A DNA stretch of 64,000 nucleotides, from NCBI GenBank assembly GCA_040901985.1, contig JBBDYC010000017.1, positions 64,001 to 128,000 on the forward strand, in the 5' to 3' direction. The stretch is from Gemmatimonadaceae bacterium. Lineage in GTDB: Bacteria > Gemmatimonadota > Gemmatimonadetes > Gemmatimonadales > Gemmatimonadaceae. The notes beneath the pieces are model-generated. The model made no database searches and was not told the origin of the DNA. It worked only from the letters and a program-made list of their open reading frames with translations. This document shows positions 17,249 through 35,562 of the stretch, piece after piece. Position 1 is the stretch's first letter, and each line of letters opens with the position of its first letter. The translations under genes and the position numbers were made by a program.

Positions 17249-20200
17249 TCATATAGTCTTTGCGACGCAGGAGACTGTCAATAGCGCATCGCTCCGCCCG
17301 ATTCCAGCCCGCCCCCGCCGCCCCGCCAGCATCGCCGGCAGGACCAGCATCGCCCCCACCGTCCCCGCCACGGTCCCGCCAGCCGTCGCCAGCGCAATCG
17401 CCCCAAAGAGCGTCGTCGCGCTCGTCCCGATCGCCAGCGGAATCAGTGACGCAATCGTGGTCAGCGTCACCATCATGATCATCCCCGAGCGGTCGAGCGC
17501 CGCCCGGAGCACCTGCGCGCCGCGCAGGCGGCCGGTCGGCGAGGCGCGACGCTTCTCCAGCGCCGCGTCCACCAGCAGGATCGCCTGGTTCACGGCCAGC
17601 CCCACGACGAGGATCACCCCGACCGCGGCCTCGCGCGTGAACGCCGCGTCGGCCCACCAGAACGCGGCCATCACCCCGGCCAGCGCCAGCGGCAGCGCGG
17701 CGAACACCATGGCCGCACCCCACATCGAGTCGAACACCATCGCCACCGCCAGGATCACCAGCGTGACGCCGATCGCGAAGACCAGCCAAAGCCCACGCTG
17801 GCTCGTGTCCTGCTCGCGCTGGAAGTCGCTTGCGTCCTGCACGGTGAATCCCGGCGGCACGGCGATGCTCTGCATGAACGCCTCGTGGGTCCGCGTCGCC
17901 AGTCGGTTCGGCCCGCGGAACTCGTACGCCACCACGCGCAGGTACTGCTGGTCCTCGCGCGTGATTGTCGCCAGCTGCTCGCGCTCGTCCACCCGCGAGA
18001 GGTCGGCAATCCGCACCGGCGTCCCGCGCGACGTCGGCACGAGCGCGTCGCGCAGCTCGTCGAGCGACCGTTCGCGGGCGCCCTGCGCCTTCACCGAGAT
18101 CGGGATCTCCTCGCCGCCGATCTCCAGTTGCTGGCCACCCACCGGGCCCCGCACCTCGCGCCCCACCGCCTGCGTGAACTGCAGCGCGGTCACGCCGTAG
18201 CGCGCCAGCGCGTCGCGGTCGGGGTCGAGTGTCACCGCGAACGCGCGGTCGCCGCCGAAGAAGCTCCCGCTCGTCACAATCGCATTCCGCACCCGGTTGA
18301 TCCGCTCCAGCCGCGACCGGATGTCCTCGGCGAGCGCCTCGACTGCCGAATAGGAGTAGCCGAGCACGCGGATGCGGAACGTGCTCATTGTGCCGATCCC
18401 GCCGCCGGAGCTGAAGGCCGGCCCCTGCCCGTAGACGCTGATCCCCGCGCCACCGATATAGACGGCGCGCGCGGTCAGCTCCTCCTGCAGTTGCAGCGGC
18501 AGTGCGCCGCCCTCGGCCTCCGGCCTGAACGAGACGCGCATCCCGGCGCCGAACACGCCGCGGCTCTGCGCAATCACCTCCTCCACCCCGGCGCGCCCGA
18601 CTGCGACGGCCTCCATCTCGCGCATCGCCGCGTCGAGACTCGCCGGGTCCGACCCGCGCGGAAAGTTGATGTTCACCGACACGGTGTTCCGCTGCACGCC
18701 GAATCCGCTGAACGAGAAGCGCGGCACTTTCTTCACGAATGCGTACGACAGGCCGCTCACCGCAGCGACGGCGAGGACGATTGTCGCCCACCGCCACCGT
18801 AGCGCCTTGGCGAGCACCCAGCCGTAACCGCGCTGCGCCCGAGGCCAATGCGTCTCCCGCAGGCCGTGGCCCGCCGCGAGCGCGGGTATCATCACCAACG
18901 CAGAGATTACCGAGCACCCGAGCGCGAGCGTGAACGCCGCCGCGAACGGGAAGAAGGCCGCCCGCGCATTCCCCTGGAGATACAGGAACGGGAAGAGCAC
19001 CACCGCCGTCGTCAGCGTCGCCCCGAGCACCGCCGGCGCCATCCGCTCCGCCACCTCGGCGCGCCCGACCGGCGTGTCCGCCGAGCCGCGCAGCCGCTCC
19101 ACGATCACCAGGCCGTTCTGCACCAGCACGCCAATCCCCATCCCGAGGCCGGCCAACGTCAGCATGTTCGCCGGGATCTCGAGCAGGAAGAGCCCAAGCG
19201 CCGTCCCGAAGATCGCCAGCGCCGCGCTCCCCATCACCAGCGCCACCGCGCGCCAGTTGCGAAGGGCGACCGCCAACACGAGCGACACGGCAAGGAAGGC
19301 GATCGCACCGCGAAGGAAGAGGTCGTTCAACTGCCGCTCGAGCTCGATTGACTCGTCGGCGGTGATCCGCCAACGCACGCCGGCCGGGAGTTCGTCGGCG
19401 AGGTCGGCGAGCGCCCCGCGCACCGCCTTGGCGGTCTTGATCGCATCGGAACCGGCCTCGCGCGCCACGGTCAGCGCCAACGCGGTGTTCCCGTTGACGC
19501 GGAAGAACATCCCGCGCGAGTCCTCCTCCGGCCGCACCTGCGCCAGTTCGCCGAGCCGGAAGACGCGGCCGCCGCGGCCGGCGATCGGCAGGTGCTCGAG
19601 TTCGACGAGCGCGCCCGGCTGATCGCGCAGCACGACCTCGCGCTTGCTCGCCCCGAGCCGCTCGGTGCCGAGCGACTGCACCACGCGCGCCTCGCGGATC
19701 GCGTTGGCCAGCGCCTGCGGCTCGACGCCGACCTGGCGGAGGAGCCGCGGATCGTACGACACGCTCGCGCCGAACTCGGTGCCGCCGCCGATCTGCACGC
19801 CCGACACGCCCGGCACGGCGCTCACGCGCGGCGTCAGGATGTCGTCGGCGATGCGCTGCAGGGCGCCCGGCGTGTATGGCCCATTGAGGAGGATCCGCAG
19901 CAGCGGCGGTTCCTCCAACTCGGCCGGCACGAGGTTTCCCACCTGCGGCGCCGTGGCGCCGATCGGGAACTCGGGACGCAGCAGCTCGAGCCGCTCGAGG
20001 ATCGCCAGTCGCGTGATCTGCACGTCCACGTTCGGGTCGAGCTCGATGGTCAGGCGCGCCGTGCCGTCGCGGGAGTCGCTGCTCGTCTTGCGCACGCCGC
20101 GCACTCCCTGCGCCGCCGCCTCGATCGGCGACGCGATGTACATCTCCACCAGCTCGGCCGACGCGCCGGCCCAGCCGGCCGTGACCTGCAGGCGCGGCAA

Positions 20201-20317
20201 CTCGACCGTCGTGCGTGTCGCCAGGGCGAGCCGCGTGAACGACACCGCGCCGCCGAGCACGAGGGCGACCGCGATCGCCCAGATCACCGCCGGCCGGCTC
20301 ACCGCCCAGCGGATCAC
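17249..20317 (-). CDS. RND efflux permease (AcrB/MdtB-like), second subunit
   Basis: 1022 aa with the 1+5+1+5 TM pattern; PIEAA and TLTTAVVLFP. Confidence 0.93.
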   Translation of the reverse strand: MIRWAVSRPAVIWAIAVALVLGGAVSFTRLALATRTTVELPRLQVTAGWAGASAELVEMYIASPIEAAAQGVRGVRKTSSDSRDGTARLTIELDPNVDVQITRLAILERLELLRPEFPIGATAPQVGNLVPAELEEPPLLRILLNGPYTPGALQRIADDILTPRVSAVPGVSGVQIGGGTEFGASVSYDPRLLRQVGVEPQALANAIREARVVQSLGTERLGASKREVVLRDQPGALVELEHLPIAGRGGRVFRLGELAQVRPEEDSRGMFFRVNGNTALALTVAREAGSDAIKTAKAVRGALADLADELPAGVRWRITADESIELERQLNDLFLRGAIAFLAVSLVLAVALRNWRAVALVMGSAALAIFGTALGLFLLEIPANMLTLAGLGMGIGVLVQNGLVIVERLRGSADTPVGRAEVAERMAPAVLGATLTTAVVLFPFLYLQGNARAAFFPFAAAFTLALGCSVISALVMIPALAAGHGLRETHWPRAQRGYGWVLAKALRWRWATIVLAVAAVSGLSYAFVKKVPRFSFSGFGVQRNTVSVNINFPRGSDPASLDAAMREMEAVAVGRAGVEEVIAQSRGVFGAGMRVSFRPEAEGGALPLQLQEELTARAVYIGGAGISVYGQGPAFSSGGGIGTMSTFRIRVLGYSYSAVEALAEDIRSRLERINRVRNAIVTSGSFFGGDRAFAVTLDPDRDALARYGVTALQFTQAVGREVRGPVGGQQLEIGGEEIPISVKAQGARERSLDELRDALVPTSRGTPVRIADLSRVDEREQLATITREDQQYLRVVAYEFRGPNRLATRTHEAFMQSIAVPPGFTVQDASDFQREQDTSQRGLWLVFAIGVTLVILAVAMVFDSMWGAAMVFAALPLALAGVMAAFWWADAAFTREAAVGVILVVGLAVNQAILLVDAALEKRRASPTGRLRGAQVLRAALDRSGMIMMVTLTTIASLIPLAIGTSATTLFGAIALATAGGTVAGTVGAMLVLPAMLAGRRGRAGIGRSDALLTVSCVAKTI

Positions 20318-23300
20318 GGGCGCCGCTCCTTCCAGCGCTCCATCACCGTGTACGCCACCGGGAGGAGAAAGAACGTCACGACCTGCGCCGAGATCGCGCC
20401 GCCGATCACCGCCGCCGCCAGCGGCTGGTAGAGCGCGCCGCCACTCCCGATCCCGAACACCAGCGGCAGCACGCCGAAAATCGTCGTCAGGCTCGTCATC
20501 GTGATTGCGCGGAGCCGCTGCCGGCCGCCAAGCAGCACCGCGTCGTGCAGCGAGTGGCCGAGCGCACGGAAGCGGCGGATCGCGTCGAGCTTCACGACCG
20601 CCTCGTTGTCCGCCATCCCGATCATCACGACGATGCCGATCAACGACACCGCGTTGATGCTCTGCCCGGTGATCCAGAGCAAGGCGAAGCCGCCCGCCGC
20701 GGCGAGCGGCACAGTGATCATCACGACAAGCGGGATGGTGAACGACGCGAACTCGCCGGCAAGCACAAGAAAGACGAGGGCCACCGAGAGGAGCGCCACC
20801 AGCGCCAGCTGCTCGGTCGTCCGCCGCTGCTCGACGTCGGCACCGGTGATCGCCCAGGTCAGCCCGGCCGGCGGCGACAGCTCCTCGAGCTGCCGCGCCA
20901 CGTCGGACGATGCGCGCGACGTGCCGCCGCGCTCGATCAACCCCTCGACGATGCTCACCGGCCGCTGGTTCACCCGCACGACCTCGATCGGCGCCCGCAC
21001 CTCGCGCCAGGTCACGAGCTGGCTCAGCGGCACGCCATTCACCGGCGTCGCCAGCGCCACCTGCAGGTCCTCGTTCGCGTTCCCCGCGAAGCGGACGCGG
21101 ATCGGCGTCCGACGGTCGGTCTCGCGCAGCTCGCTGGCGTCCACCCCACCGAGGCCGCCCTGCAGCGCACGCAGCACGGTCTGCACCGGAATCCCCCGCT
21201 CGGCGAGCCGCGACCGCTCGAGCGCGACCTCCACCTGCGGCTGCGTCGTGCTGTAGGCATCACGCACGTCGCTCAACGTCGTGAGCGTGGCCAGCCGACG
21301 CCGCACCGAGTCCGCCCACTGCTGGCTCTCGGCGAGCGTGCGCGCGCTCACCTCCACCCGCACCAGCCGCCCCTCGCGACCGATCAGCGAGCCGAACTCC
21401 GACTGGCCCGCGAGGTCGAGGGCGAGCATCCCGCCGTCCGCGAGGTCGCTGACGCCCGAGCGCAACGCATTCGCGAAGCGTGCCGCGTCCATCCCGTCGG
21501 GTACCGGGACCAGCAGCTGCGCGGTCGCCGACGTGCCCGGCTCGGCGCCGGAGAGCACTTCCTCGTCGGTGGCGATCCCCACGCGCGAGTAGACGCCGCG
21601 CGAACCGAGCGCGCGCGCCGCCGCCTCGACGCGCCCCACCTGCCGCGCCGTCTCCTCGATCGCCGTGCCCTCGGGGAGCTGCAGCGCCGCGACGACCATC
21701 CCCTCGTCCACCTGCGGGAGGATCTCCTTGGGCATCCTCCAGAGCGCGACGACCATCACCGCCACCATCGCGAGACCGACGCCGAGCATCGCCGGCGGCC
21801 GGAGCAGCGCCCACTCCATCCCGCGCTCATAGACGTCGGCGCAGCGTTCGCCGAACGCGATCAGCCGCGTTTCCGCCGGCCCCGGCACACGCGGCGGCGC
21901 CGGCGCGCGCGCGGCGAACTTCCGACGGCCGACGATCATCACCGGCATCAGCGTGAGCGCCAACACGAGCGACCCCGCCACCGAGAGCACGACCGCGAGC
22001 GACAGGTCGCGGAAGAGCGCCGCCGCAAGTCCCTTCACGAAGATGATTGGCCCGAAGACCAGCAGCGTGGTGAGCGTGCCCGCGAGCAGCGGACCGGCCA
22101 CCTCATCGGTCGCCTCGATGGCCGCGTCGGCGAGCGGCAACCCGCCCTCGACCACCCGTCGCTCGGTCGCGTCGGCGACGACGATCGCGTTGTCCACCAG
22201 AAGGCCGACGCCCAGCGCGAGCCCGCCCAGCGAAAGCACGTTGACCGTCACGTCGAAGAGTTGCAGGAAGACCAGCGCAATCATCACCGAGAGCGGCAGG
22301 ATCACCGCAATCGCGAGGGACGAGCGCCAGTTCCGCAGGAACACAAGAATCATCAGCAGCGAGAGCATCCCGCCAAGGAAGATCTCCTGGCCAAGATTCG
22401 AGAGGGCAGCGACCACGAAGTCGGCCTGCGCGGCGACCACGTGCATCCGGATGTCGGGGAACTCGGCCTGCAGGAGCGCCACCACCGCCTGCATCCGCTC
22501 CGTCACCGCCACCGTGTTGGAGCCAGCGTCCTTGTAGACGACGAGCCCGACCGCCGCGCCGCCGTCGAGCCGTGTCATCGTCTGCGGATCGGCGATCGTT
22601 GACGTGATCGTCGCGATGTCACGCAGCCGCAGGTTCGCACCCGTCGGGCCCACCGGCGTCTCGGCGATCTCGTCGAGCGCGCGGAACTCGGTCAGCGCGC
22701 GCACCGAGAAGCGGAACTGTCCGCGACGGATCGTCCCGCCGGCGCCGTTGGCGTTCGCGGCCTGCACCGCCGTCGCCACCTGGTCCGTCGAGAGCCCGAG
22801 CGCGCGCATCCGCTCGGGGTCCACCGCGATGCGGATCTCGTCCTCTGGCGCGCCGACGACCGCCACGCTGGCCACGCCGGCGATCTGCTCGAGCCGCCGT
22901 GCGTGTACATCGAGCGCGGTCCGGCCGAGCAAGCGATGGTCGTTCAGGCCGGTCAGGCCGATCACCGCGATCGGCCGTTCGCCGGGATCGCTCGTCAGCA
23001 ACGTCGGGCGCGCCGCGCCTTCCGGCAGCCGTGCCCGCGCCTGGTCGAGCCGCTCGCGCACCGTGAGGATCGTCGTCGGCATCTCCGTCCCCCACGAAAA
23101 CCGCAGGGTGGTGACGGCCTCCCCGTTCCGGCTCACCGAGCGGAGCTCGACGATGCCCGGCGTCGCCGCCACCGCCGCCTCGATCGGCTCGGCGACGAAC
23201 CGCGACACTTCCTCGGCGGCCGCCCCGGGATACGTCGTCCGGATCGTCAGCACCGGGAGCGTCACGTCCGGCAGCAGCGTCACCGGGAGCCGGGTGAGCG

Positions 23301-23382
23301 AGACGCTCCCGAGGAGGACGATAGCCAGGGTCGCCGCCACCGTCGTCACGGGACGACGGACGGCAAAGGCGGTGATGGACAC
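20314..23382 (-). CDS. RND efflux permease, first subunit
   Basis: FAVRRPVT, SLGGLALGVGLLVDNAIVV and RLRAITMTSLTT. Confidence 0.95.
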   Translation of the reverse strand: MSITAFAVRRPVTTVAATLAIVLLGSVSLTRLPVTLLPDVTLPVLTIRTTYPGAAAEEVSRFVAEPIEAAVAATPGIVELRSVSRNGEAVTTLRFSWGTEMPTTILTVRERLDQARARLPEGAARPTLLTSDPGERPIAVIGLTGLNDHRLLGRTALDVHARRLEQIAGVASVAVVGAPEDEIRIAVDPERMRALGLSTDQVATAVQAANANGAGGTIRRGQFRFSVRALTEFRALDEIAETPVGPTGANLRLRDIATITSTIADPQTMTRLDGGAAVGLVVYKDAGSNTVAVTERMQAVVALLQAEFPDIRMHVVAAQADFVVAALSNLGQEIFLGGMLSLLMILVFLRNWRSSLAIAVILPLSVMIALVFLQLFDVTVNVLSLGGLALGVGLLVDNAIVVADATERRVVEGGLPLADAAIEATDEVAGPLLAGTLTTLLVFGPIIFVKGLAAALFRDLSLAVVLSVAGSLVLALTLMPVMIVGRRKFAARAPAPPRVPGPAETRLIAFGERCADVYERGMEWALLRPPAMLGVGLAMVAVMVVALWRMPKEILPQVDEGMVVAALQLPEGTAIEETARQVGRVEAAARALGSRGVYSRVGIATDEEVLSGAEPGTSATAQLLVPVPDGMDAARFANALRSGVSDLADGGMLALDLAGQSEFGSLIGREGRLVRVEVSARTLAESQQWADSVRRRLATLTTLSDVRDAYSTTQPQVEVALERSRLAERGIPVQTVLRALQGGLGGVDASELRETDRRTPIRVRFAGNANEDLQVALATPVNGVPLSQLVTWREVRAPIEVVRVNQRPVSIVEGLIERGGTSRASSDVARQLEELSPPAGLTWAITGADVEQRRTTEQLALVALLSVALVFLVLAGEFASFTIPLVVMITVPLAAAGGFALLWITGQSINAVSLIGIVVMIGMADNEAVVKLDAIRRFRALGHSLHDAVLLGGRQRLRAITMTSLTTIFGVLPLVFGIGSGGALYQPLAAAVIGGAISAQVVTFFLLPVAYTVMERWKERRP

Positions 23383-23405: not shown

Positions 23406-24551
23406 TCAGTCCGGCGCGCCGGGCGACTGCTCACGCGCCGCCACCATCCGCACCGGCGCGTCGTGGATCAGCGTCAGGTGCCCCTCGACGATCACGCGAT
23501 CGCCCGGCTGCACCGGAATCACGCCGGAGACCGAGTCGGGAAGGATCTCCGTCTCCCGGCCGTTCGAGCGGCCGGGGAGGACGTAGGTCCACTGCGCGCG
23601 CCCATCGCGCACGACGAAGACGAGCGGGCGGCCGTCGCGCTCGATGATCGCGCGGCTCGGCACCAGCCGACGGCCGCTGAGGCGCTGTGCCTCGAGCCGT
23701 ACGTCGGCATACATCCCCGGACGGAGCGCGCCGCCGCCGGTCGCGCGCACGAAAACCCGTCCGGCGCGCGTCGTGCTGTCCACCAGGGGGAGGATCGCCT
23801 CGACCCGGCCGGCAATTGCCTGCCCCGGGATCGCCGCGCTCGTGATCACCGCCTCGCCACCGATCCTGATCAGCGGCAGGTCGTGCTCCAGCACCGCCGC
23901 CTCGACCCGGATGTTCGCGAGGTCCACCAGCGTCGCAATCTCCTGGCCGGCGTTCAGCCGATCGCCGACGACCGTGTTGATCCGGTCAATCGTCCCCGCG
24001 AAGGGCGCGATGATTCCCGCGCGCTCGCGCGCGAGCTTTGCCCGGTCAAGGCGGACGCGCGCCGCGGCGAGCCCGGAGCGAATCACAAAGGCGTCGAGCC
24101 GCGTCTGCGACGGCATCTTCCCCGTCGCCGCGGAGTCGGGACGATACAGGTCCTCGTACTGTTGCTGCGCCACCTGCAGCGCGACCTGCGCCTCGGCGAG
24201 GTCGAGGTCCAGCGGGCGCGGGTCGAGCTCCACGATTGCCTGGCCGCTGCGGACCCGGTCGCCGGGCCGGACCATCACCCGCGCCACCGTGCCGGCGACT
24301 TCTGAGCGGATCCGACCTTCGGAAGCGGAGCGGACTTGGCCCGTCGTGTTGACCGACAGCACGAGGTCGCCATCGGTCACCTCGGCGGCGACGACCGGGA
24401 GACTGATGTTCGAGGCCGTCGAGCCGCCTTCGTCGGCGGCCGACGAATCGGCCGCCGCGGCCGCCGCGTCGGCCGATCCCCCGAGCTTGCCGCACGAGGC
24501 CAGCGTGACGATGGCGATGACCAACGCGACTTTACGGCGGAAGGCCGGCAT
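23406..24551 (-). CDS. RND periplasmic adaptor (membrane fusion lipoprotein)
   Basis: Lipobox LASC, lipoyl-like SEVAGTV, APFAG and LRPGMYA. Confidence 0.93.
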   Translation of the reverse strand: MPAFRRKVALVIAIVTLASCGKLGGSADAAAAAADSSAADEGGSTASNISLPVVAAEVTDGDLVLSVNTTGQVRSASEGRIRSEVAGTVARVMVRPGDRVRSGQAIVELDPRPLDLDLAEAQVALQVAQQQYEDLYRPDSAATGKMPSQTRLDAFVIRSGLAAARVRLDRAKLARERAGIIAPFAGTIDRINTVVGDRLNAGQEIATLVDLANIRVEAAVLEHDLPLIRIGGEAVITSAAIPGQAIAGRVEAILPLVDSTTRAGRVFVRATGGGALRPGMYADVRLEAQRLSGRRLVPSRAIIERDGRPLVFVVRDGRAQWTYVLPGRSNGRETEILPDSVSGVIPVQPGDRVIVEGHLTLIHDAPVRMVAAREQSPGAPD

Positions 24552-24671: not shown

Positions 24672-25829
24672 TCACCGGATGACCCGGAAGCGGGTCAGAA
24701 GCTGGCCACCGCTCTCTGCGTCGTGCACCGGCACGAGGAGTTCACCGTTCGGGAGGAGCCCCACGGGAAGCGCCATTCCGCGCACGGTGCCGGCGTACGC
24801 GCCGTCCGAGGCGAAGACGTCGACGATCTGCGGCCGCTCGTCGCGCCCCGAGCGCCGGACCCACATGGTGCCGTCGGACAGCAACGCGAGGCCGAAGACA
24901 AATGGCATCGTCTCAGCCAGCCCAGCGGTCATGAGAACCTCAATCGGAAACCCGCAGGTCGGCCCACCGGGGATCGCCAGCTTGAGTCCATCGGGATACA
25001 GACGCCGGACATCGTCGTCGGTCGGGGCACGCGTGGGAATCTCTCGCCGGATGCTCGCGATGAGGCGTGGCCCTTCGTACAGGCGCAAGTCGTATTGCGG
25101 TCCCACCGTGGCCAGCAGCCGAGGTCCGGAGGCCGTCCACCGGAGTTCGGGGCCAAAGAACGGCGGAAGTGAAATGGCCATGTCGCAGGCCCGCAGGATG
25201 ACGCCGCGCGGCTTCGCGGCACTCAAGAGTTGAACGCCCCCGACGGTGTCCGACATCAGGACCGTTCGGCGTCCTTCGGGAGTGAAGCTCGAAGTCTCAA
25301 CCCACGCGCCGCCGCTGCGGAACGCGATGTCTTCAACGCCCGTCAGTGCGCCGCGCAGTCCGAGATCGTTCAGTGGCTCGAGCGTCGGGCCCCACCGCAC
25401 CAGCGCGTTGCGCTGGTGGTCCAGGACCGCCAACGAATCCCCCTGCACCATGAGCGCGCCCGGATACTCCATCTCGCCTGGCGCCCCGCCCTTCCGGCCG
25501 ATGCTCCGCAAGTAGGCGCCGTCGCGCCCGAACTGCAGGACCGCCGGGTCGCCAACCAGCACGTACACCCGGCCCAGCCGATCTGTCACCACCCGCCGCG
25601 TGGTGAGACCCTCAAAAATGAACGGATCCCCGACCGAGTCGCGCAGCACGCCGACCGTATCAAAGCGCCAAGCCAACGTCGTGTCGGCACCCGTGGACGT
25701 AATGACTCGCACGCCAGCGGAATCCGTACGGACCACGCTTGATGCCGTCGCGTCGCCCGAACCGCAGGCGGCCAGCGCCGCCGCCGCCGCGAGCGCCGCA
25801 ATCCGCGTGATGTGGCCGATCTTCGCCAT
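24672..25829 (-). CDS. 6-bladed beta-propeller-type lipoprotein
   Basis: Lipobox LAAC, VVRTDSAGVRVI, IGRKGGAPGEM and VDVFASDG. Confidence 0.8.
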   Translation of the reverse strand: MAKIGHITRIAALAAAAALAACGSGDATASSVVRTDSAGVRVITSTGADTTLAWRFDTVGVLRDSVGDPFIFEGLTTRRVVTDRLGRVYVLVGDPAVLQFGRDGAYLRSIGRKGGAPGEMEYPGALMVQGDSLAVLDHQRNALVRWGPTLEPLNDLGLRGALTGVEDIAFRSGGAWVETSSFTPEGRRTVLMSDTVGGVQLLSAAKPRGVILRACDMAISLPPFFGPELRWTASGPRLLATVGPQYDLRLYEGPRLIASIRREIPTRAPTDDDVRRLYPDGLKLAIPGGPTCGFPIEVLMTAGLAETMPFVFGLALLSDGTMWVRRSGRDERPQIVDVFASDGAYAGTVRGMALPVGLLPNGELLVPVHDAESGGQLLTRFRVIR

Positions 25830-25840: not shown

Positions 25841-26956
25841 TCACGGCGTCCGAATCCGATACACCACGACGTACGGCAGATCGTCCTCGTCGCGCACAAT
25901 GGTCACGAGTCGGCCGCGCACAATGCGATACAGCGGGTAGAACTCCCAACGCCCGGGCGCCGCCACCACCGCGATGCGCCGCCCCGACGCGTCCCACACG
26001 TCGAACGCCAGGGTGCGGTCGGGGAGCTCGCGGCGCACCCAGACCCGCCCTTCGTCGTCACCCTCGATCCAATTGAGGGCACCGCGATCTCGCGGGACGC
26101 TCCCTCTGTCCCACGGCTCAAGCGCGCCCCCGGTGCTGGCCAGAAAAGTGTCCACCTCCGCAATCGCCGCGTCGCGCTCGGCGCGCGTGATCGGCACGCG
26201 AGGCGCGTCAAGGGCAAGCTGGCGATCGTGCCGCGTCGCGCCAACGGGAAACCGCCGGGGCTTGTACTCGTCGGAATTTGCACACCACAGCGCGCCTTCA
26301 CGTGAAAGTGTCAACACCAGGCGCGCCGCAAACGGAAACGAAGTGAATCCGCGCCGCGACGCGACCGAGCTCCGCGGCGGCGGGAGATCGCTGCAGGTGG
26401 TCGGCAGATCCACCGTGTCGGCGCTCGACAGGTCGGGCGCGTAGCGCGTCATCACCCGCACGCGCGAGTCGCCCCGCGTCACCGAGATCATATCGAGGAT
26501 CCGTCCCTGGGCATCCACCGTGCCGTCCCAGCGATACCCATACCCGTGCGAGGGGACGAGATACTGGCGGTCGAACGTGCCGTCCGCGGCAAACACCGTG
26601 AGCCGCTGATTGCGGTGGTCGCGCACCCACATCCGCCCGTCCGGTCCGAGTCGAATGCCGTTGGCGTTGGCAATCTCACCCGGCCCCGCGCCGCGTCGCG
26701 CCACCTCCTTCAGCGGCGCGCCATCTGGCGCGAACAACCGAATGGACTGCGTCTGTCCGTCAAGCACCCAAATCCTGCCATCGTACCCGAGCTGCACATC
26801 CACAATCTGATTGAACGACGCCAGCCCCTCGTCCTCACCGCCGACCCGCACGACTTCTTCCAGCGCCCACCGCGCCTGCGCGCCGAGCGGCGCGGCCAGC
26901 GCCGCCGCCAACACGCCACCCAAGACCGAGAGCTGTTCGACGCGACAAGCCATCAT
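25841..26956 (-). CDS. 6-bladed beta-propeller-type secreted protein
   Basis: Signal peptide, ARRGAGPGEI, FDVWDASG and RDEDDLPYV. Confidence 0.82.
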   Translation of the reverse strand: MMACRVEQLSVLGGVLAAALAAPLGAQARWALEEVVRVGGEDEGLASFNQIVDVQLGYDGRIWVLDGQTQSIRLFAPDGAPLKEVARRGAGPGEIANANGIRLGPDGRMWVRDHRNQRLTVFAADGTFDRQYLVPSHGYGYRWDGTVDAQGRILDMISVTRGDSRVRVMTRYAPDLSSADTVDLPTTCSDLPPPRSSVASRRGFTSFPFAARLVLTLSREGALWCANSDEYKPRRFPVGATRHDRQLALDAPRVPITRAERDAAIAEVDTFLASTGGALEPWDRGSVPRDRGALNWIEGDDEGRVWVRRELPDRTLAFDVWDASGRRIAVVAAPGRWEFYPLYRIVRGRLVTIVRDEDDLPYVVVYRIRTP

Positions 26957-27006: not shown

Positions 27007-27141
27007 TCCCATCGTTTGCTTCTGCTGTGAACGCTCCAATAAAAAGGGTTTGGCGTGGCGTCCGCAACCAGCCTAGGGCATCACGGACGCCCCGCCAAAC
27101 CCAATCCGCACCGCGTTCATCGGCAGCAAGCGTCGTTATGT
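27007..27141 (-). other. Degenerate integron attC-like site
   Basis: Minus strand reads ACATAAC-5nt-TTGCTGCCGATGAACGC ... GCGTTCACAGCAGAA-6nt-GATGGGA, with two unpaired bases and an inner 19-bp stem. Confidence 0.65.
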
Positions 27142-27187: not shown

Positions 27188-27940
27188 ATGCGAACCCGAA
27201 TGCTTCTCGTGAGCTGGCTGGCGTACGCGCTGGTTGCCACGGCGCATGCACAGTCCATCCCAACGTGGCGTCTCAGCGAGGCGCCGACATTGCGGCTGGA
27301 GGAGGATGGGACGCCCGAACGCGAGTTCACGCGCATCATCGGCGCGTACCTCGTCGGAGACGACCGCATTGCCGTCGCGGAGAACGCCTCGAGCGAGGTA
27401 CGCATCTTCGAGCGCGATGGCCGATGGACGGGGAGCGCCGGACGACAAGGGTCAGGCCCCGGGGAGTTTCAATTCTTGCTCGCGGCATTCCGAGCGGGAG
27501 ATACGCTCTTCGCGTTCGATCCAATGCTTAAGCGCATCACCACGATTGTTAGCGGAGCGGAGCCGCTTGTGGCGTACGGGCTTACGCTGAACGCGCGAGG
27601 CGGGCGCTCCTTCGAAGTACGCGGGCGAACCGCCGATGGTCGATGGGTCGCGCAGTACGACGACGCGGCGGGTTGGGACGCCCCGCCCGGCGTCCATCGG
27701 TCGCGCGGCGGCGTGGGAGTCGTGCCAGCTGACGGAGCGGGCAGCGTGCAATGGCTCGCGGCGCTTCCGGGCATAGCCTCGTTCGTGCATAATCCGACGG
27801 GGAACATTCGCGCGGCACGTAGAGGTCCGATCGCGTTCACGCCACGGCTATACGTGGCGGGCTCGGGGCGAGCGCTTTGGTTCGGGGAGTCGAGCACGGC
27901 GGAACTCGTACGGTACGACGCTCAGTCTGGAGCTCGGCGG
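27188..27940 (+). pseudogene. Truncated 6-bladed beta-propeller-type secreted protein
   Basis: Signal peptide (AHAQ) and AGRQGSGPGEF; homology stops at the IS-like end at 27941 and the family C-terminal motif is missing. Confidence 0.8.
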
Positions 27941-27990
27941 GGATGTTGCTCCACTTTCGTTGACACCCTGAGTTCGGCCGCGCGGCGTTC

Positions 27991-29238
27991 TGACCTCATC
28001 CCGAAAAAGTTGGGCAGGTTGAAACTGGAGGAGGCAGGAGGCGAAGTTCAGCGGTCCACGCCGCCCCCGAGGGCAAGGACGGACCATGAAGGGATCGAGA
28101 TTCTCGGAAGAGCAGATCGCGTACGCGTTGCGCCAAGCCGAGGGCGGGACCCCTGTGCCGGATGTGTGCCGGCCGTTGGGCGTGAGCGAGGCGACGTTCT
28201 ACGTGTGGAAGAAGAAGTACGCGCACCTGGGCGCGAGCGAGTTGCGCCGGATGCGGCAACTGGAGGACGAGAACACGCGACTCAGGCGCGTCGTGGCCGA
28301 CCTCACGCTCGACAAGCACATACTCGCCGAGGCACTTCAAAAAAGGCTGAGGCCAGCGCAGCGTCGGGAGCTCGCCGGGTAGTTCATCGCCACGTTCGCG
28401 GTGGCAGTCCGGCGGGCCTGTGCGCTGGCCCAGTTCAGTCGGGCGGCCTAATACAAGAAGAGCACGGCGAAGGACCAGACGGCGCTGCGGATGCGGATTC
28501 GCGATCTGGCGCACGCGCGGCCACGCTTTGGCTACAACCGGATCTGGGCGATGCTGCGGCGTGAGGGGTGGCTGGTCAACCGGAAGCGTGTGCGGCGTCT
28601 GTATCGGCTCGAGGGCCTGCAGGTGCGGATGCGCGTGCGGCGGCGCAAGCACATCGCGCTCCACCGCGGCCCGGCGCCGGTGCCGCTCGGCCCCCGCGAG
28701 CGGTGGAGCATGGATTTCGTGCACGATGCGTTGGTCGATGGCCGGCAGTTTCGGATCCTTACCGTCGTGGATCAGTGGAGTCGCCAGAGTCCGATGCTGG
28801 AGGTGGCGTCCAGTATGTCAGGCCACGGCGTTGCCGAGGCGCTCAATCGTGCGATCGCGCGATCGCCGTCGGCGCGCCACTGCGCTCCATCACGGTCGAC
28901 CACGGCACGGAGTTCATGAGCCGCGCGCTCAAAGACTGGGCGTGGCGGCGCGGCGTGCAGCTCGAGTTCATCCGGCCAGGCAAGCCGGTCGAGAACGCGT
29001 ACATTGACTCGTTCAACGGCAAGCTGCGGGACGAGTGCCTGAACGCCAATCAGTTCCGCTCGCTCGACGGTGCGAAGGAGAAGATCGAAGCGCGCCGACG
29101 CGACTACAACGAGCACCGACCGCACTGCTCCCTCGGGCACCTGACCCCGAAGGAATTCGCCGAAACACGTCAGGCAGCGAGAGCCGCTGACGCCGCCTGA
29201 TTCCGGTTTAGACCTGTCTCTAAACGGGACCAAGGTCA
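27991..29238 (+). mobile_element. Degenerate IS3-family element (IS407-like)
   Basis: TGACCT...AGGTCA imperfect inverted ends; orfA HTH (RFSEEQI) and rve core (WSMDF, DHGTEF, NAYIDSFNG). Confidence 0.92.
28086..29200 (+). pseudogene. IS3 transposase orfAB pseudogene
   Basis: In-frame TAG and TAA between orfA and 28491; a further frameshift near 28860-28880. Confidence 0.88.
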
Positions 29239-29296: not shown

Positions 29297-30394
29297 CTAC
29301 CGTGAGAGCGTCCAGACGACGTAGCGTTGCCATCGCTGGTAGAACTGTCCGGAGGGTAAGCGCCGCCAGAAGACGCCACTTGCCGCGAGGAGAGGGCCGG
29401 GTCCGCCGTTCGCCGCCGGTGCGAAGACTACCTCGCCACCCGCCTCCTCTTTGCCTCTCGCTGGATTCCAGAAGAGCCATCGCGCCTCTAGCAGTGTGGC
29501 TGCGCCGTCCAGCCGGAGTGTGCCGTCGAGCCCCGAGGCCCGGCGATTTCGCGCACAGAAGCGAAGAACTGTTGCGCCAGAGGGGCTGCTCGTGAAACGG
29601 AAGGTGTGCTGCGTCGCAAAGAGCTCGTCAACGAAGTGCCCCGCCAGTTCCGCGTACAACGCTGGATACGCCCAGAGGCCGAAATCATCACGCTGATGTA
29701 TGTCTCGGAGCGGATATACGTAGCCGAGGCGCGAAATACCGCTTCGAGCTGTTGCCATTCCCGCCGCGGTATACTCGCGTGACCCGGTCCCCAGCCGGTC
29801 GCGCGCGAAATCGGCGACGCCCGCCGCTGAAACGGTACCCACCGCCTGCTCGAAACGACTATGTCGGCCCTCCAGCGACGGGGTGAGATACTGCCTACTG
29901 GCCTGGGCCCAGCGCTCCCTTGCCGCCGGATCGTCCTGCTGCGGACAGGCCTGCGACACCGCCGTTACGGTGACTTCCGGCAGTGGCGCGGACACCGGTT
30001 CGAGAGTGACCTCAGTGACCCGGGCTTCCGCGACCGCCACCCGCGCGGGCAAAAAGCCGATGTGTCGCACCAGTACGGCCACGGCGCCTTGTGCTTCCAT
30101 ATCTCCGAAGACAGCGGTACCGCGTTCGTCCGTCAGCCGAGAGGCTAACAATGTGGTAGCAGACCACAGGTCTGCGCGCGCGCCCGCGAGAGCCCGACCC
30201 CCGTTCTCGCGAACTGTCACGCTCAACTGCGCCTCCGTGGTCGCAGCAAATGCTACGACAAGCCCGGTGAAGCTGATGAGGCGGCTAGCATGCGGCGCCA
30301 GCAATGAGAAAAGCACGGACGAGCCTCCGGTTGCGCAAACGTGGCCTGCTACCACAGCTGCTAAAATAAACGGCGCGAGCGTAACTCGCACCAA
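29297..30394 (-). CDS. Secreted protein with carboxypeptidase-regulatory-like N-terminal domain
   Basis: VRENGGRALAGA, TDERG, VRHIGF and LPEVTVTA pattern; start uncertain. Confidence 0.72.
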   Translation of the reverse strand: MVRVTLAPFILAAVVAGHVCATGGSSVLFSLLAPHASRLISFTGLVVAFAATTEAQLSVTVRENGGRALAGARADLWSATTLLASRLTDERGTAVFGDMEAQGAVAVLVRHIGFLPARVAVAEARVTEVTLEPVSAPLPEVTVTAVSQACPQQDDPAARERWAQASRQYLTPSLEGRHSRFEQAVGTVSAAGVADFARDRLGTGSREYTAAGMATARSGISRLGYVYPLRDIHQRDDFGLWAYPALYAELAGHFVDELFATQHTFRFTSSPSGATVLRFCARNRRASGLDGTLRLDGAATLLEARWLFWNPARGKEEAGGEVVFAPAANGGPGPLLAASGVFWRRLPSGQFYQRWQRYVVWTLSR

Positions 30395-30754: not shown

Positions 30755-30982
30755 GTGAGACGCGTACTCCTGCGGTTGACGTGCATCACCATCCTTGGAA
30801 TTGGCGCGCAGTTTGCGAGCCCCGGAACTGCCCTCGCAGATCCGGCAAGCTGCCCGGAGGATCCTTCCACACTGTGCAGCCCTCCGCCGAATTACGGAAC
30901 CTGTAGCGCAACCTGCACGACAACGTCAACCGGTATCGTCTACGAGTGCGTCTATCGTCCGTTCGAGTGCATGGACGAGTAG
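30755..30982 (+). CDS. Small secreted six-cysteine peptide
   Basis: GGAGG before GTG; signal peptide ending ALA; 47-aa mature part with 6 Cys; 3' hairpin. Confidence 0.78.
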   Translation: MRRVLLRLTCITILGIGAQFASPGTALADPASCPEDPSTLCSPPPNYGTCSATCTTTSTGIVYECVYRPFECMDE

Positions 30983-31114: not shown

Positions 31115-31768
31115 TTGACTTCGAAACTCTCAGACTTCGTGCTGGTCGTGTGCGCGCTGGTGATGGTTGCGCTGGTCGCGCGAAATCAATCCAGGGGTGG
31201 CACTGCTTCTGAATCCGAGACACCAACCGACAGCGTAGTTTCTGATGCCGACTACTATCGCGATCTGAGTCGCAGGTCCGGTAGCGAGGATGTCCAAGCT
31301 GAGATCGTGGTGTTTACGGACTACCAGTGCCCGTTCTGCAAGAGGCTCTGGCATGCGCTCGATTCCTTGCGTGCCGAGTCACCCGACGCCGTTGCGTTGA
31401 CGGTGCGACACTTCCCGCTCGCTGGCATTCATCCTCAAGCGCGGGCGGCAAGCGCCTTCGTCGAGTGCGCACGCCGAGAGAACAAGTTTCGAGAGGCTGA
31501 CTCGATTCTCTTTGCCTGGCCGGACTCTGTCGAACGCGGCGCTTGGACATCGATCGCATCGCTAATTGGAATGGAGTCTCCGGCTTCCGTCAACAAATGC
31601 ATGGCGTCGAACGGGATTACGGAGTTGATCGACGCGGACATCGCCGCGGCACGGCGTCTCGGTGCGACAGGTACGCCGATGATGCTTGTCAACACTGTTC
31701 GGGTGCGCGGTGCGAGGTCGGTTGAGCAGATCCGACGCATCATTGCAGAGTCCCACGGATCCGACTAG
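31115..31768 (+). CDS. DsbA-family thiol-disulfide oxidoreductase, membrane anchored
   Basis: FTDYQCPFC, RHFPL and GTP cis-Pro loop; N-terminal TM. Confidence 0.92.
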   Translation: MTSKLSDFVLVVCALVMVALVARNQSRGGTASESETPTDSVVSDADYYRDLSRRSGSEDVQAEIVVFTDYQCPFCKRLWHALDSLRAESPDAVALTVRHFPLAGIHPQARAASAFVECARRENKFREADSILFAWPDSVERGAWTSIASLIGMESPASVNKCMASNGITELIDADIAAARRLGATGTPMMLVNTVRVRGARSVEQIRRIIAESHGSD

Positions 31769-31769: not shown

Positions 31770-32972
31770 ATGCTCACACGCTCGATCGGAATGCTGGGCT
31801 TAGGAGACTCCTCGTGGCCTGCCGCCTTTGTGACCACTCACACCGCTTTCAGGCTGAACCCCGTATTCGCGGCCGCGCTACTGATACTCGTTCCTGCATC
31901 AGTCGCAGCTCAGGTGCGAGAGCTGAAGCTCCCTCCGCCAAGCGACTCCTTGTCGCACGGGTTCACCAGAATCACTGCCGTCCGCGAGCTAGCGGACGGA
32001 CGGGTTCTCGTGCTCGATGCACGCGATCGCGCACTCTTCCTTGCGGATCTTTCGGCTGACGCGGTGCAAACCGTCGGCCGCACGGGAAGCGGTCCGGCTG
32101 AGTACAGGAGGCCGTTGCGCCTTGTGCCGCTGGCTGGTGACAGCACGCTGCTCGTCGATGAGGGAAATCAGCGGTGGCTGATGCTCGCGGGCCCTCACAT
32201 CGCGGTCACAGTTCCTCCGAGCGATTCTGTTCTCGCTCTCACTGGACTCAGAGTATTCGCCGTCGGTCACCCCGACCAGTTTCTTGGCGTTGTCCTAGTC
32301 GACCGTGAACGGCTGACCGGCGATCGCCAGCGCAACAGGCTGGCTGTCGTGCGGGTTCAGAGGCGCGCCTTGTCAGTTGACACCGTCGCGGCGCTCAAAG
32401 GTGTGGAGGTACACGTGCGTACAGAGGGCACTGCTCAGGCTCGTGGCATTCACGTGCTCGAGGTAATGTACTCGGTCGCTGAGCAGGCGCTGCTGTTCGC
32501 TGACGGATGGATCGCCCTGGCGCGGCAGAATCCCTATCGCGTCGACTGGCTGACCCCGGACGGAGGATTGTTGCGAGGCCCGAACCTCCCGTGGTCCAGT
32601 CCTACGATTGGCGCAAGCGAAATCGAGTGGTTCAGAAAACGGATGGAGCGTCGCCTTGGTCGCCCTATCCCGGCGCCACTTGAGGGTCTGGCGTTCGCCA
32701 CAGTTGTTCCTCCGTTTCGAGAGAACGGTTTGAATGCGCTTCCCAGCGGTCACTTGCTCATCGCTCGTTCGGAGTGGTCCGGATTACGCGGGACCGAGTA
32801 TGACGTCGTTAATCGTCGAGGGCGGCTCGTCGCGCGGATGAGCTTGCCGAGTAACGTGCGAATCGTCGACGTCGGCGCACAACACGTTTTCAGTGTTGCC
32901 GTCGACGATGACGGTATCGAGACGCTTCGACGGCACCGCTGGCATTGGAGTGCCACCGGCAACGAAATGTGA
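31770..32972 (+). CDS. 6-bladed beta-propeller-type secreted protein
   Basis: VRELADGRVLVLDARD, VGRTGSGPAEY, YDVVNRRG and VDDDG; start uncertain. Confidence 0.8.
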   Translation: MLTRSIGMLGLGDSSWPAAFVTTHTAFRLNPVFAAALLILVPASVAAQVRELKLPPPSDSLSHGFTRITAVRELADGRVLVLDARDRALFLADLSADAVQTVGRTGSGPAEYRRPLRLVPLAGDSTLLVDEGNQRWLMLAGPHIAVTVPPSDSVLALTGLRVFAVGHPDQFLGVVLVDRERLTGDRQRNRLAVVRVQRRALSVDTVAALKGVEVHVRTEGTAQARGIHVLEVMYSVAEQALLFADGWIALARQNPYRVDWLTPDGGLLRGPNLPWSSPTIGASEIEWFRKRMERRLGRPIPAPLEGLAFATVVPPFRENGLNALPSGHLLIARSEWSGLRGTEYDVVNRRGRLVARMSLPSNVRIVDVGAQHVFSVAVDDDGIETLRRHRWHWSATGNEM

Positions 32973-33217
32973 GAAGAATTGGCTGCTGGAATAGTCGCTT
33001 GCAGGGCTATTCCTCGGCGATTTGCGGTCGTTGGGCTCTTCAGCGGGTAGAGCCCGAGGTGCTTAGAACGGCCACGCGCATTCGCGTGCGCCTGCGTGGG
33101 ATGCGGGGAAGGTGAGCCCCATGGCGGCCCTCAGTATCGGGGTGACGCGCGAGCTTGGTTGCTCGCGCCAGGTTACCCTGGAACGCATCCTGGCCGGCCT
33201 CGCTCGTCCGCTGCCTA

Positions 33218-34082
33218 GAACCTATCTCGTAAACGAGTAATGCCCGGGTGAGGTCATTCGTCTATGGAGGACGCGCGTGGTGCGTGTCCCCTTCGGAGTT
33301 GACGAATGGACCGCACCGATGCCCAGTGGTGCCGCCTCGAACCACTCGTCCCGCGACCGCGGGTGCGCCCCGATGGGAAGGGCCGGCCGTGGCGCGATCC
33401 GCGCGATGTGCTGCATGGCGTGCTGTGGGTGATGCGCACCGGCGCACCGTGGCACGACCTCCCGGATCGCTACCCGCCCTATAAAACGTGGCATCGGCGG
33501 TTCCAGCTCTGGGCGCGGAATGGCACGCTGTACCGGGTGCTCGCCCTGCTGGCGCGGGAACTCGCCGCGGCGGGTGGCTACGATTTCACCGAGGCCTTCA
33601 TCGATGCGACCTTCGCGGGCGCGAAAAAAGGGGCGGCGCCGTCGGACTCACCCGCAAAGGCAAAGGCACCAAGATCATGGCAATCACAGACGGTGCTGGT
33701 CTTCCTCTCGCCGTTACTGTCGCAAGTGCGAATCCCGGGGACATCTCCCTCGTCGAGGACACGCTGAAGGCGCGCTTTCTCCGGCCGCTGCCGAAGCGAA
33801 TTATCGGCGACCGCGGCTACGACAGTGACGCCGTGGATGCCCGGATGGCCAAGCGCGGGATAGCGTTCCTCGCGCCGCACCGCTCCACCCGGAGATACAT
33901 GACCCAGGACGGCCGGCAACTCCGGCGCTACTGCCGCCGCTGGAAGATCGAGCGCTTCTTCGCGTCGTTGCAGTACTTCCGCCGCCTGGTGACCCGCTAC
34001 GAATGCCATGCGGAGAACTTCCTCGCGTTCGTGCAGTTGGCTTGCATCATTATCCTCTCCCGGCAGTTTACGAGATAGGTTC
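33218..34082 (+). mobile_element. IS5-family element (IS427-like)
   Basis: Perfect inverted ends GAACCTATCTCGTAAAC; TA duplication within a CTAG site. Confidence 0.93.
33306..34078 (+). CDS. IS5 transposase, two ORFs joined by a probable -1 frameshift at AAAAAAG (33624-33630)
   Basis: RTGAPWHDLP, FIDAT, GDRGYDS and RWKIERFF...RRLVTRYE. Confidence 0.9.
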
Positions 34083-34320
34083 TAGGGCGAAACACACCGT
34101 CACATGCTGGGGGCAGTCAGCCGGCAAGAGCGACTCTGGACTAGACTCGCAGAAGCTGAGATTCTCGGCGCGGCGGTATCGGCCTAGGGGGCGCGCGCGG
34201 ACCGGAATGCGGCGTCAGAACTGATGTCGCCGCAAATTTCCGGGTGACGATGGATAAGCAGCGATGTCATTGGCCGAGCCACTTCGCCGCGAAGTCCGTA
34301 TAACTCCCATCTTAGTCTGA

Positions 34321-35562
34321 CTATCCCCGCAACGCCTGCTCCGGCACCGCGTGCCGCTGCAGGTACACGAGATCGTCCTCGTCGAGCGTCGTCGTGTAGA
34401 TCGTGCCGTTCCCGAATCCGACCAGCGTGAGTCCCTCGCCCAACCGCACCTGATGCGTCACGACACCCTGTCGGTTGATCACGTCGTAGAGCGTCCCCTT
34501 CGCGCCGGCGGGCTCCGTCCGCCGCACCCAGAGCTCGCCATTCGGGCGCGCCCAGACGCTCGCCATGCCGGGACGGAAGGGTGGCTTGACGTCCGGCCAG
34601 TCGGTGAGTGGCGGAGGAGGAGGCGCGTTCGCGCCGGGGCCCACGGACGCCGAGCGCCGCGTCCCGCCCGGTCCGGCATCCATCGACACCGTCATCTGAT
34701 TCGCCCTTGCGCGTAGCCGAAGCGCCTCCTCCTCCCGCTTGTCGGCGTCGGTGATCCGGATGGGCGTGTAGCGGATCGGCCCCGACGACTGGCGCGTGCC
34801 GTTCGGCTGGATCCAGTCCACTCGATAGCCGTCCGCGCGCACCACCGCCACGCGTCCGTCGGGGAAGACCGCCCACTCGTCGCGCGGCGTCAGCGGATTG
34901 GAACCGCCGATCATCATCCGCATGTTCCCCTGCCCGCCACTCACCTCCACGTTTTGTTTCTGAAGCTTCACCCAGGTGAGCGTGTCCGTCCGCTTGGTGA
35001 CGCGGTCCCAGCGAATCAACGCCGACGAGTCGGCCGACTGCGGCCGCCCGTCCGGACCCATAGAGAATCCCGGCGTCTCGGCGTACAACCGGCCGTCGCC
35101 ATCGCTGCCGCGCGCGAAGATCATCCCGCGCATCCGAACCCCGCCGCCACTGCTCGACTCCTCTTCGACCCGGAAGGTCGTCACCGGCTTTCCGTCTGGC
35201 CCGATCACCAGGTAACGTGTATTCAGCGGGTCGAACAGGAAGGTCGTGTCGTTTGCCGCCGGGAAGAGCCGCATCGGCATCCCGAACTCGCCTGGACCGC
35301 TCCCCTCGCGACCGATCGCCGTGGCGCTTCCGGTCCGGAAGTCAATCAACTGCACGACCTTGTCGCGTGCGTCTGCGACGATCAGGCGACCGTCCCGAAG
35401 CTCCCGGATGGTCCCCGGGGCGATGGAGCTGAACGGCTCCTCGAACGTGGCGTCGGGAGCTGGCAACGAGCGCGCAGGCTGCACCGGCGGCTGGGCAACC
35501 AGCGGCGCCGCCGCGGCGCAGAGCGCGACGGCGAGCGGGACAAGGCGTGGTGACGGGAGCAT
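34321..35562 (-). CDS. 6-bladed beta-propeller-type secreted protein
   Basis: Signal peptide, IRELRDGRLIVADARD, IGREGSGPGEF, YDVINRQG and LDEDDL. Confidence 0.83.
   Translation of the reverse strand: MLPSPRLVPLAVALCAAAAPLVAQPPVQPARSLPAPDATFEEPFSSIAPGTIRELRDGRLIVADARDKVVQLIDFRTGSATAIGREGSGPGEFGMPMRLFPAANDTTFLFDPLNTRYLVIGPDGKPVTTFRVEEESSSGGGVRMRGMIFARGSDGDGRLYAETPGFSMGPDGRPQSADSSALIRWDRVTKRTDTLTWVKLQKQNVEVSGGQGNMRMMIGGSNPLTPRDEWAVFPDGRVAVVRADGYRVDWIQPNGTRQSSGPIRYTPIRITDADKREEEALRLRARANQMTVSMDAGPGGTRRSASVGPGANAPPPPPLTDWPDVKPPFRPGMASVWARPNGELWVRRTEPAGAKGTLYDVINRQGVVTHQVRLGEGLTLVGFGNGTIYTTTLDEDDLVYLQRHAVPEQALRG

Follow-up and report, generated by a model that had tools for sequence, protein, structure and literature searches.

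A polymorphic mini-protein cassette encoding a predicted cognate beta-propeller, inserted at a resident propeller-RND operon of a Gemmatimonadaceae bacterium

This study concerns a 64,000-nucleotide stretch of a Gemmatimonadaceae bacterium genome (assembly GCA_040901985.1, contig JBBDYC010000017.1, positions 64,001 to 128,000; we call the whole stretch the window, and coordinates given without a locus label refer to it), in which we find an undescribed, polymorphic mini-protein cassette. A gene for a secreted six-Cys peptide is followed, on the same strand, by genes for a DsbA-like oxidoreductase and for a beta-propeller predicted to be the cognate partner of the peptide, and the three are inserted at a resident operon of propellers and a resistance-nodulation-division (RND) pump. 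The source genome is 2.64 Mb long and 99.97% complete. An earlier first-pass annotation, made from the DNA letters, had named these genes and their neighbours; open reading frames (ORFs), translations and Pfam matches confirm all of them at the positions it gave, including the succession of six-Cys peptide, DsbA and propeller. Labels beginning with G, L and C denote genomes, loci and contigs, and the five propellers of the locus are numbered P1 to P5. The cassette genes are:

30755..30982, + strand: secreted six-Cys mini-protein, with a 28-aa signal-type leader and a 47-aa mature part
31115..31768, + strand: cassette-type DsbA-like thiol-disulfide oxidoreductase (PF01323, E 5e-19; PF13462, E 6e-15), with an N-terminal membrane anchor and CPFC
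31770..32972, + strand: six-bladed propeller P4, its start codon uncertain, from 31770 to ~31830

The peptide ORF, of 75 aa, has a GTG start with GGAGG 5 nt ahead of it, and its leader, with a basic N-region, a hydrophobic core and ALA cleavage, is of the Sec type by the crude hydrophobicity rule that we used, without SignalP, to call signal peptides. The mature peptide has six Cys at a spacing of 7-8-3-10-6, is acidic (net charge about -5) and lacks Trp; it combines a Sec signal with an even number of Cys in a small mature part, a pairing also expected of cargo on the enterotoxin STII route. Judged by eye, it is the sole convincing Cys-rich small ORF with a signal peptide among 35 crude candidates in the genome. 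A database homologue, P0121, shares 80% identity with it and conserves each of the six Cys; the longest contig for this homologue, and for a 74% homologue of P4, is in each case 8,865 bases, which suggests that the two are possibly travelling together. The peptide, modelled as a single sequence, forms a short helix and a beta-hairpin (mean predicted local distance difference test score, pLDDT, 77); the model had zero fold matches in the PDB at E<=0.001, 47 residues being too few to imply a new fold, and an Atlas search with the peptide gave weak leads (0.79-0.83; recognition 2236) to Acidobacteriota clusters, at values too low to be informative. Profile searches placed the peptide in no Pfam or NCBIfam family, and the lack of a Pfam family would suit an ORF that arose by chance in a low-GC island. 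That explanation has next to no probability in our judgement: the ORF has a Shine-Dalgarno site and a signal-type leader, and we reject chance on the strength of the homologue, with its six Cys, and of similar ORFs at the equivalent position in 21 other cassettes.

The linkage of peptide, DsbA and propeller is found in many Gemmatimonadota genomes, a recurrence that the first-pass annotation had anticipated. The cassette DsbA has the CXXC and cis-Pro loop (CPFC and GTP motifs) and scores above the PF01323 cut-off. A DsbA search limited to one genome per species left 80 loci; six bear a Gemmatimonadota title, and in all six a secreted Cys-rich ORF precedes the DsbA gene, four of them also having a propeller match, and among the other 74 a propeller occurs in L007 alone, which is near-identical to L006. 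We then collected all DsbA matches with E<=1e-8 from 41 genomes, giving 78 rows that include two from the source genome, G000. In a quick tree of these, 52 rows form a conserved clade (SH-aLRT 97) in which none has a peptide within 2.5 kb and none a propeller nearby; the other 26, all on long branches, have a peptide in 22 cases (20 upstream, 2 downstream) and a propeller in 17, and the four peptide-less rows comprise one that is poorly aligned, one that lacks the peptide and two on contigs of <4 kb. The DsbA of our locus stands outside the conserved clade. A single genome may hold as many as seven cassettes (G035; G016 has five), and DsbA and propeller are fused in one reading frame in two independent instances, L006/L007 and L138. 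Other cassettes (L001, L144, L147, L164 and L166) have no propeller and instead a CarboxypepD_reg-type protein, which is a frequent alternative partner, or some other partner. Taken as a functional unit, the cassette is in our view very probably real.

Three of the loci met in these searches deserve separate mention. At L001:3020-12078 two paralogous 8-Cys peptides each precede a 680-aa secreted protein, with one DsbA; the 680-aa proteins have neither a Pfam nor a propeller match, and this is a cassette type with a different partner. At L046:7075-7314, from Phycisphaerales, a DsbA-like gene is closely preceded by an 8-Cys small ORF with a twin-arginine-like leader, and the pair may represent a related cassette beyond Gemmatimonadota. 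The near-identical peptide and DsbA-propeller fusion of L006 (Longimicrobiales) and L007 (a 5-kb contig labelled Bryobacterales) reflect either mis-binning or transfer.

The cassette peptides are a polymorphic library, not a conserved family. One scripted rule gathered 50 of them, 2 of which look like antisense artefacts; its overlap filter was relaxed, the stricter form having lost the positive control and L207, and the rule was rerun on all sets. Cys counts are even in 47 of the 50 (four Cys in 12, six in 21, eight in 13 and ten in 1) and odd in 3, there are 48 different Cys spacings, and 41 peptides are net negative, with a median charge of -4. BLAST among the 50 links six pairs only, five of these being tandem paralogues, and Pfam matched none of 13 peptides (this one, its homologue and 11 from other cassettes). 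The residue at -2 of the last Cys is hydrophobic in 26/50, vs 63/260 at other Cys, and arrays L210 and L230 carry two to three peptides per propeller. Such Cys-rich, acidic peptides might be periplasmic metal or redox buffers, with the pump removing the metal-loaded form. We regard this as very improbable: even Cys counts beside a DsbA-type enzyme argue for disulfide bonds, neither the sequence nor the spacing of the Cys is conserved as it would be in a peptide with a chemical function, the insert that carries the cassette has no modifying enzyme and the permeases of the locus score far under the CusA/CzcA cut-off.

P4 was modelled from 118 sequences as a six-bladed propeller (pLDDT 94.8) from which a long, variable beta-hairpin protrudes. 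Its top fold matches are tied between the NHL propeller 1q7f (Z 15.9, root-mean-square deviation (rmsd) 4.0, 260 residues aligned) and the Bacteroides DUF4221 structure 3s9j (Z 15.9, rmsd 4.3, 302 aligned), with PAL, lactonases and Vgb lyase also among them. Against PF17170, P3 scores 23.2 bits (cut-off 22.9), P2 22.0, P1 and P4 about 13, and P5 gives no score. Named homologues of the propeller are from Gemmatimonadota, and five of the eight matches to the propeller profile in the genome fall in this locus.

Modelled together, P4 and the mature peptide gave a complex scoring 0.76 in three runs, vs 0.00 for the best of three controls; the runs share at least 94% of contacts and the partner pLDDT is at least 82. 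Of 78 solved complexes, 51 attain the mark that we used for such models, as do 2 of 108 mismatched pairs. In the model the C-terminal strand of the peptide (residues 31-42) pairs with a strand of the P4 hairpin (182-193) beside a helix (252-267), a prediction that the peptide binds P4 by beta-strand addition. Across the 118 sequences, the 19 columns of P4 that form the interface vary more than the rest (mean majority frequency 0.26 vs 0.50 overall), as expected of cognate recognition but also of any surface insert. The prediction supports, for P4, an earlier suggestion that the propellers act as binding partners, and cognate binding between peptide and propeller appears to us quite probable.

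A confident two-chain strand-addition model would also fit a peptide that never leaves, but serves as a permanent, disulfide-locked subunit completing a variable binding or catalytic surface of the propeller, in the manner of methylamine dehydrogenase. This is concordant with the DsbA-propeller fusions and with the finding that most cassettes have no exporter nearby and lie at a distance from the pump. We hold it to be rather unlikely, considering that no residue except Cys is conserved across the peptides, that the peptide of this locus has no Trp, that the five propeller-less cassettes listed above exist and that L210 and L230 have several peptides to one propeller. Among the mau products, MauB has a propeller fold. 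In the portion of the source used here, the mau cluster comprises MauA, MauB, MauD and MauE, MauA carries tryptophan tryptophylquinone (TTQ), formed from two Trp and made by MauG, and MauD offers this alternative a precedent for a dedicated CXXC protein (bioRxiv 10.64898/2026.03.05.709764). On that partial account, mau and the cassette share a disulfide-rich small protein, a dedicated CXXC protein of thioredoxin fold and a propeller partner; they differ in that MauA is conserved whereas the cassette peptides are hypervariable, this one lacking the Trp, and the insert has no MauG or MauE gene. A TTQ enzyme was considered separately and ruled out: TTQ-type chemistry is excluded because the peptide has no Trp, and the insert proteins have no Mau family match at E<=0.05.

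The cassette sits in an 8.5-kb insert, bearing insertion sequences (IS), that is absent from the closest relative, G019. This relative is colinear with the window over 17307-25736 and over 34323-42000 and has P5 directly before P1, so that ~25.8-34.3 kb is an insert. GC content is 0.62 from the CarboxypepD_reg-like gene through P4 vs 0.69-0.71 in the flanks. Two overlapping contigs of a sequencing run, possibly of the source sample, cover 24000-37000 with zero differences, and a scan of contigs for a joint bypassing the insert found none that was credible, the joints having sides of ~20-34 nt at 85% likeness. The remaining features of the insert and of the resident genes around it are:

17249..20317, - strand: RND permease 1 (RND1), by alignment to MdtB 9lyq
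20314..23382, - strand: RND permease 2 (RND2; PF00873, E 3e-202)
23406..24551, - strand: RND periplasmic adaptor, a lipoprotein (TIGR01730, above cut-off)
24672..25829, - strand: propeller P1, a lipoprotein (lipobox LAAC), resident, immediately upstream of the adaptor
25841..26956, - strand: propeller P2 (PF17170, E 1e-4), in the variable insert, in the same orientation as the pump operon
27018..27140, no strand assigned: repeated element of ~125 bp separating P2 from P3 and containing a 19-bp inverted repeat (copies on C7, 93%, and C8, 74%)
27188..27990, + strand: propeller P3, IS-truncated (PF17170, E 5e-5), its frame running into the IS end
27991..29238, + strand: insertion sequence with an internal stop, presumably IS3-like by its transposase sequence
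29297..30316, - strand: secreted protein whose N-terminal domain resembles CarboxypepD_reg (PF13620, E 2e-4, below cut-off)
33214..34086, + strand: insertion sequence, presumably IS5-like, with 21-nt perfect terminal inverted repeats and a 78% copy on contig C7
34321..35562, - strand: propeller P5, resident, kept across the genus (orthologues 56-78% identical, upstream of P1)

The five paralogous propellers counted in the first-pass annotation are all present, of which four are intact, because P3 is cut by the IS; a C-terminal remnant of P3 was not found in 27100-30000, by a search that is partly circular in that its profile included the P3 read-through. P2 has no counterpart at the corresponding place in G019. 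The CarboxypepD_reg-like gene is divergent from the peptide gene, and the Atlas clusters matching its product (score 0.98) are from Gemmatimonadota. The element at 27018-27140 may be a structured RNA or like a miniature inverted-repeat transposable element, and has no Rfam match; an Rfam search of 26900-34400 gave nothing credible, and scanning the insert for repeats turned up the IS ends and a single hairpin, nothing more.

Peptide, DsbA and P4 are on the + strand, whereas P5, P2, P1, the adaptor and the RND genes are on the - strand. A single 18-kb operon is ruled out by the two strands and by the absence of the insert from G019. The broader proposal that the 18-kb stretch is one system does not stand either: here the cassette was inserted on the other strand, elsewhere cassettes are mostly distant from the pump, and the P5-P1-pump operon is kept without upstream peptide or DsbA in all 14 close relatives that we scored.

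Both permeases fall below the cut-offs of the named NCBIfam RND families (MdtB, MdtC, AcrB, CusA/CzcA), and the canonical Asp-Asp-Lys relay is missing. RND2 keeps one Asp of transmembrane segment 4 (TM4; VDN) and has DN[E/D] at the usual place of the TM10 Lys (53 rows); RND1 has neither the TM4 Asp pair (VQN) nor the TM10 Lys (VNQ), and LVQNGL occurs in 37 of 56 rows. With RND1 lacking the relay residues and RND2 keeping VDN, the sequences fit a heteromer with one energising subunit and a non-standard relay, RND1 being the likely non-energising subunit. An MdtBC-type division of labour between two permeases is known. Our locus is like MdtABC in having one adaptor and two permeases, one of them without proton-relay residues, and among solved structures MdtB 9lyq matches best (E 3e-46); it is unlike MdtABC in that the scores are far under the MdtB and MdtC cut-offs, neither permease has the TM10 Lys and propeller genes are associated. 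RND1 has matches at E<=1e-130 in 77 of 201 genomes of the phylum. The locus has no gene for an outer-membrane channel; five OEP-family genes (10 domain matches) lie elsewhere in the genome, and in some families (L117) an OEP gene belongs to the pump operon.

The link between propellers and pump is firm. The gene order in the 14 scored relatives, of the same genus or order, is gyrA, optional genes, P5, P1, adaptor, RND2 and RND1, with variations, and propellers are present in all 14; they are also found at 21 of 26 further close-orthologue pump loci and at 2 of 9 distant ones, in sum near the adaptor at 37/49 pump loci vs 5/40 control windows (20 kb each, from 20 of the same genomes). Loci with less than 3 kb upstream (L125, L239) or with no adaptor in the stretch (L213, L215, L220, L233) were dropped, as were, from a first batch, L113, L120, L128, L129 and L130, which had no adaptor with upstream DNA in one stretch. 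All 24 RND1 genomes have propeller matches, and RND1 occurs in none of the 11 genomes that lack a P4 match.

The link between peptides and pump is suggestive. Peptides occur at nine of the 26 close-orthologue loci, hence at 9/49 pump loci vs 1/40 controls (Fisher p 0.02, the loci being kin and not independent), and RND1 is present in 10/11 cassette genomes vs 14/30 others, these genomes likewise being kin. Peptide genes are co-directional with adaptor and permeases in L216, L228, L230, L236 and L313, and complete co-directional peptide-(DsbA)-propeller-adaptor-RND-RND runs in L216, L230 and L313 give substance to an association of peptide, propeller and RND genes outside the window. In L207, L209, L210, L287 and the window the peptide genes are opposite to the pump.

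Considering these findings together, we tentatively propose a swappable cassette in which a DsbA-oxidised six-Cys protein is gripped by a propeller, is possibly exported by the RND pump and serves as a strain-specific effector, a reading that we place a little below an even chance. The peptide would be exported by Sec and then cleaved; the cassette's own membrane-anchored DsbA, recharged by the VKOR that is encoded in the genome, would form three disulfides; and P4 would act in the producer's periplasm as a folding escort and for self-protection (immunity), with DsbA-propeller fusions tethering the propeller to the inner membrane. Release could follow via the heteromeric RND pair and an unlinked TolC-type channel, as enterotoxin STII is released via MacAB-TolC; export by the RND pair is possible but in some doubt. 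The released peptide might act against or between bacteria, and, since the peptides are acidic, by binding a protein target rather than by lysing membranes; given release, an effector role is reasonably likely. Unlikely, in our estimate, is the more ambitious version of a polymorphic secretion system across Gemmatimonadota, in which unrelated, disulfide-locked mini-proteins, each with its own DsbA and gripped by a cognate six-bladed propeller via beta-strand addition, would pass in folded form out of the periplasm via a dedicated heteromeric RND pump whose energising motif is non-canonical, as the conotoxin-like arsenal or identity code of each strain.

Several observations weigh against the effector proposal. 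The complex prediction covers one pair only, P4 with the peptide, and blind neighbour pairs reach the mark in 7 of 44 cases; the peptide that follows the closest genome orthologue of P4 (54%, L082) has 7 Cys and is unrelated, and many propellers of the P4/P5 family have no peptide within 1.5-kb flanks. The DsbA tree is a quick version with long branches and SH-aLRT as its only support measure. Acidic peptides are atypical for bacteriocins. At the pump, peptide or DsbA is present in 0/14 scored relatives and peptides in none of the nine distant loci; in a metagenome set, of whose 70 loci 23 have 3 kb upstream and 26 have 3 kb downstream, peptides were found in 2/23 upstream and 1/26 downstream, and the pooled upstream figure is 11/72 vs 1/40 (p 0.053). 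In G034, a genome that is 98% complete, a cassette is present and RND1 gave no match at E<=1e-100. In the window the cassette runs against the direction of the pump operon, with IS elements on its flanks. Finally, among propeller-bearing loci the peptide rates are alike, 9/37 at the pump vs 1/5 in controls, and peptides may therefore merely track propeller arrays.

This last comparison, together with the five loci of opposite orientation and the cassette-less pump of all 14 close relatives, speaks for a pump operon with some other substrate, at which cassettes gather through homologous recombination between propellers and an insertion-tolerant site; variation of other cargo (a MacB-like pair, amidohydrolases) at the same site agrees with it. 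Operon-like co-directional runs in unrelated genera (L216, L228, L230, L236, L313 and L335) count against it, as do the propeller matches in every RND1 genome and the absence of RND1 where a P4 match is lacking. We rate this alternative as a serious possibility that stops short of being probable.

Alternatively, the peptide might be a kin-specific signal, with the propeller as its periplasmic receptor and an adjacent regulator as readout. Hypervariable cognate pairs and the acidic, non-lytic character of the peptides would suit such a role; an ECF sigma factor adjoins the peptide in L207, and regulator-like ORFs, recognised by eye, lie near L131, L142 and L127. The insert of our locus, however, has no regulator or sensor kinase, and P4 has no membrane signalling domain, and we judge a signal of this kind to be improbable.

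Each biogenesis step of the effector proposal has precedent, the combination and the cognate propeller being the new part; neither is described in the full-text literature that we searched, which omits most subscription journals. The closest pathway is that of STII, which, in the part of the source drawn on here, passes through Sec, gains its disulfides from DsbA in the periplasm and is released via MacAB-TolC (PMC5985334). Compared with this account, the cassette likewise encodes a small signal-peptide protein, with a candidate tripartite pump as its putative route from the periplasm, but it differs in its cassette-specific, membrane-anchored oxidase, its two-permease RND candidate, its encoded propeller and its acidic, mutually unrelated peptides.

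Cys peptides with their own thiol oxidoreductases are known, as in sublancin with BdbA and BdbB. Clusters for bacteroidetocins (class IIf bacteriocins), in the section that we cite, are likewise compact and patchily distributed and combine a Cys peptide with a dedicated thiol oxidoreductase, a double-glycine leader and a peptidase-ABC transporter (PMC6671954); by comparison with that section, the cassette leader is of the Sec type, and the insert encodes a propeller and lacks a transporter of that kind. A double-glycine bacteriocin was itself considered for this locus and ruled out, the leader being Sec-type and the insert ORFs including no peptidase-ABC transporter. Candidate peptide clusters of Streptomyces contain homologues of mauD and mauE, and the passages cited mention no propeller there (PMC7794033). 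NHLRC2/SOQ1, described in an extract as eukaryotic and single-copy, joins a thioredoxin-like domain to a six-bladed NHL propeller (PMC6107167), as the L006 and L138 fusions join a thioredoxin fold to a propeller; unlike the cassettes, it has no linked variable peptide in that extract.

Small NVEALA proteins (PF14055) of Bacteroidota adjoin DUF5128/DUF4221 propellers. The propeller superfamily is the same in our locus, to judge by the weak PF17170 matches and the fold match to DUF4221 3s9j, whereas the peptide has neither the NVEALA motif nor a PF14055 match; a genome-wide PF14055 search matched no control genome and so gives no information on NVEALA, and the searched full text held no paper containing the term.

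If the proposal is true, an abundant, little-studied phylum of soil and sediment would hold a hidden pool of disulfide-rich mini-proteins missed by annotation, each with a matched binder and a folding enzyme, and hence testable ligand-binder pairs and possibly new narrow-spectrum antibacterials or signals. It would also give a function to a very large, unannotated family of six-bladed propellers and a candidate RND pump with a folded protein as cargo.

Other observations concern the surroundings of the operon. Just downstream of RND1, a second low-GC patch (12432-16957) encodes a subtilase that contains a Cys/Pro-rich insert (the subtilase match being PF00082, E 1e-33), together with two exported proteins without assignment and an IS256-like transposase; it separates RND1 from DMT and SixA-like genes that directly follow RND1 in relatives. 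Between gyrA and P5 lie three tandem genes for secreted amidohydrolase-family proteins (35677-40186), which are also in G019, G004, G020 and G005 and absent from other relatives. A MacB-like permease and adaptor occur among propellers at the variable site upstream of P5 in L112:12304-14736 (G016) and L121:8177-10717 (G022). L212:1227-11416, L214:645-11452 and L232:3782-11343 each carry an array of five to seven propellers ahead of the adaptor; two of the three also include a redoxin or DsbA-like gene, and our rule found no peptide in any. In L244:8502-10478 (G087) a propeller gene stands between two RND permease genes, with a 3-Cys secreted ORF upstream of the adaptor.

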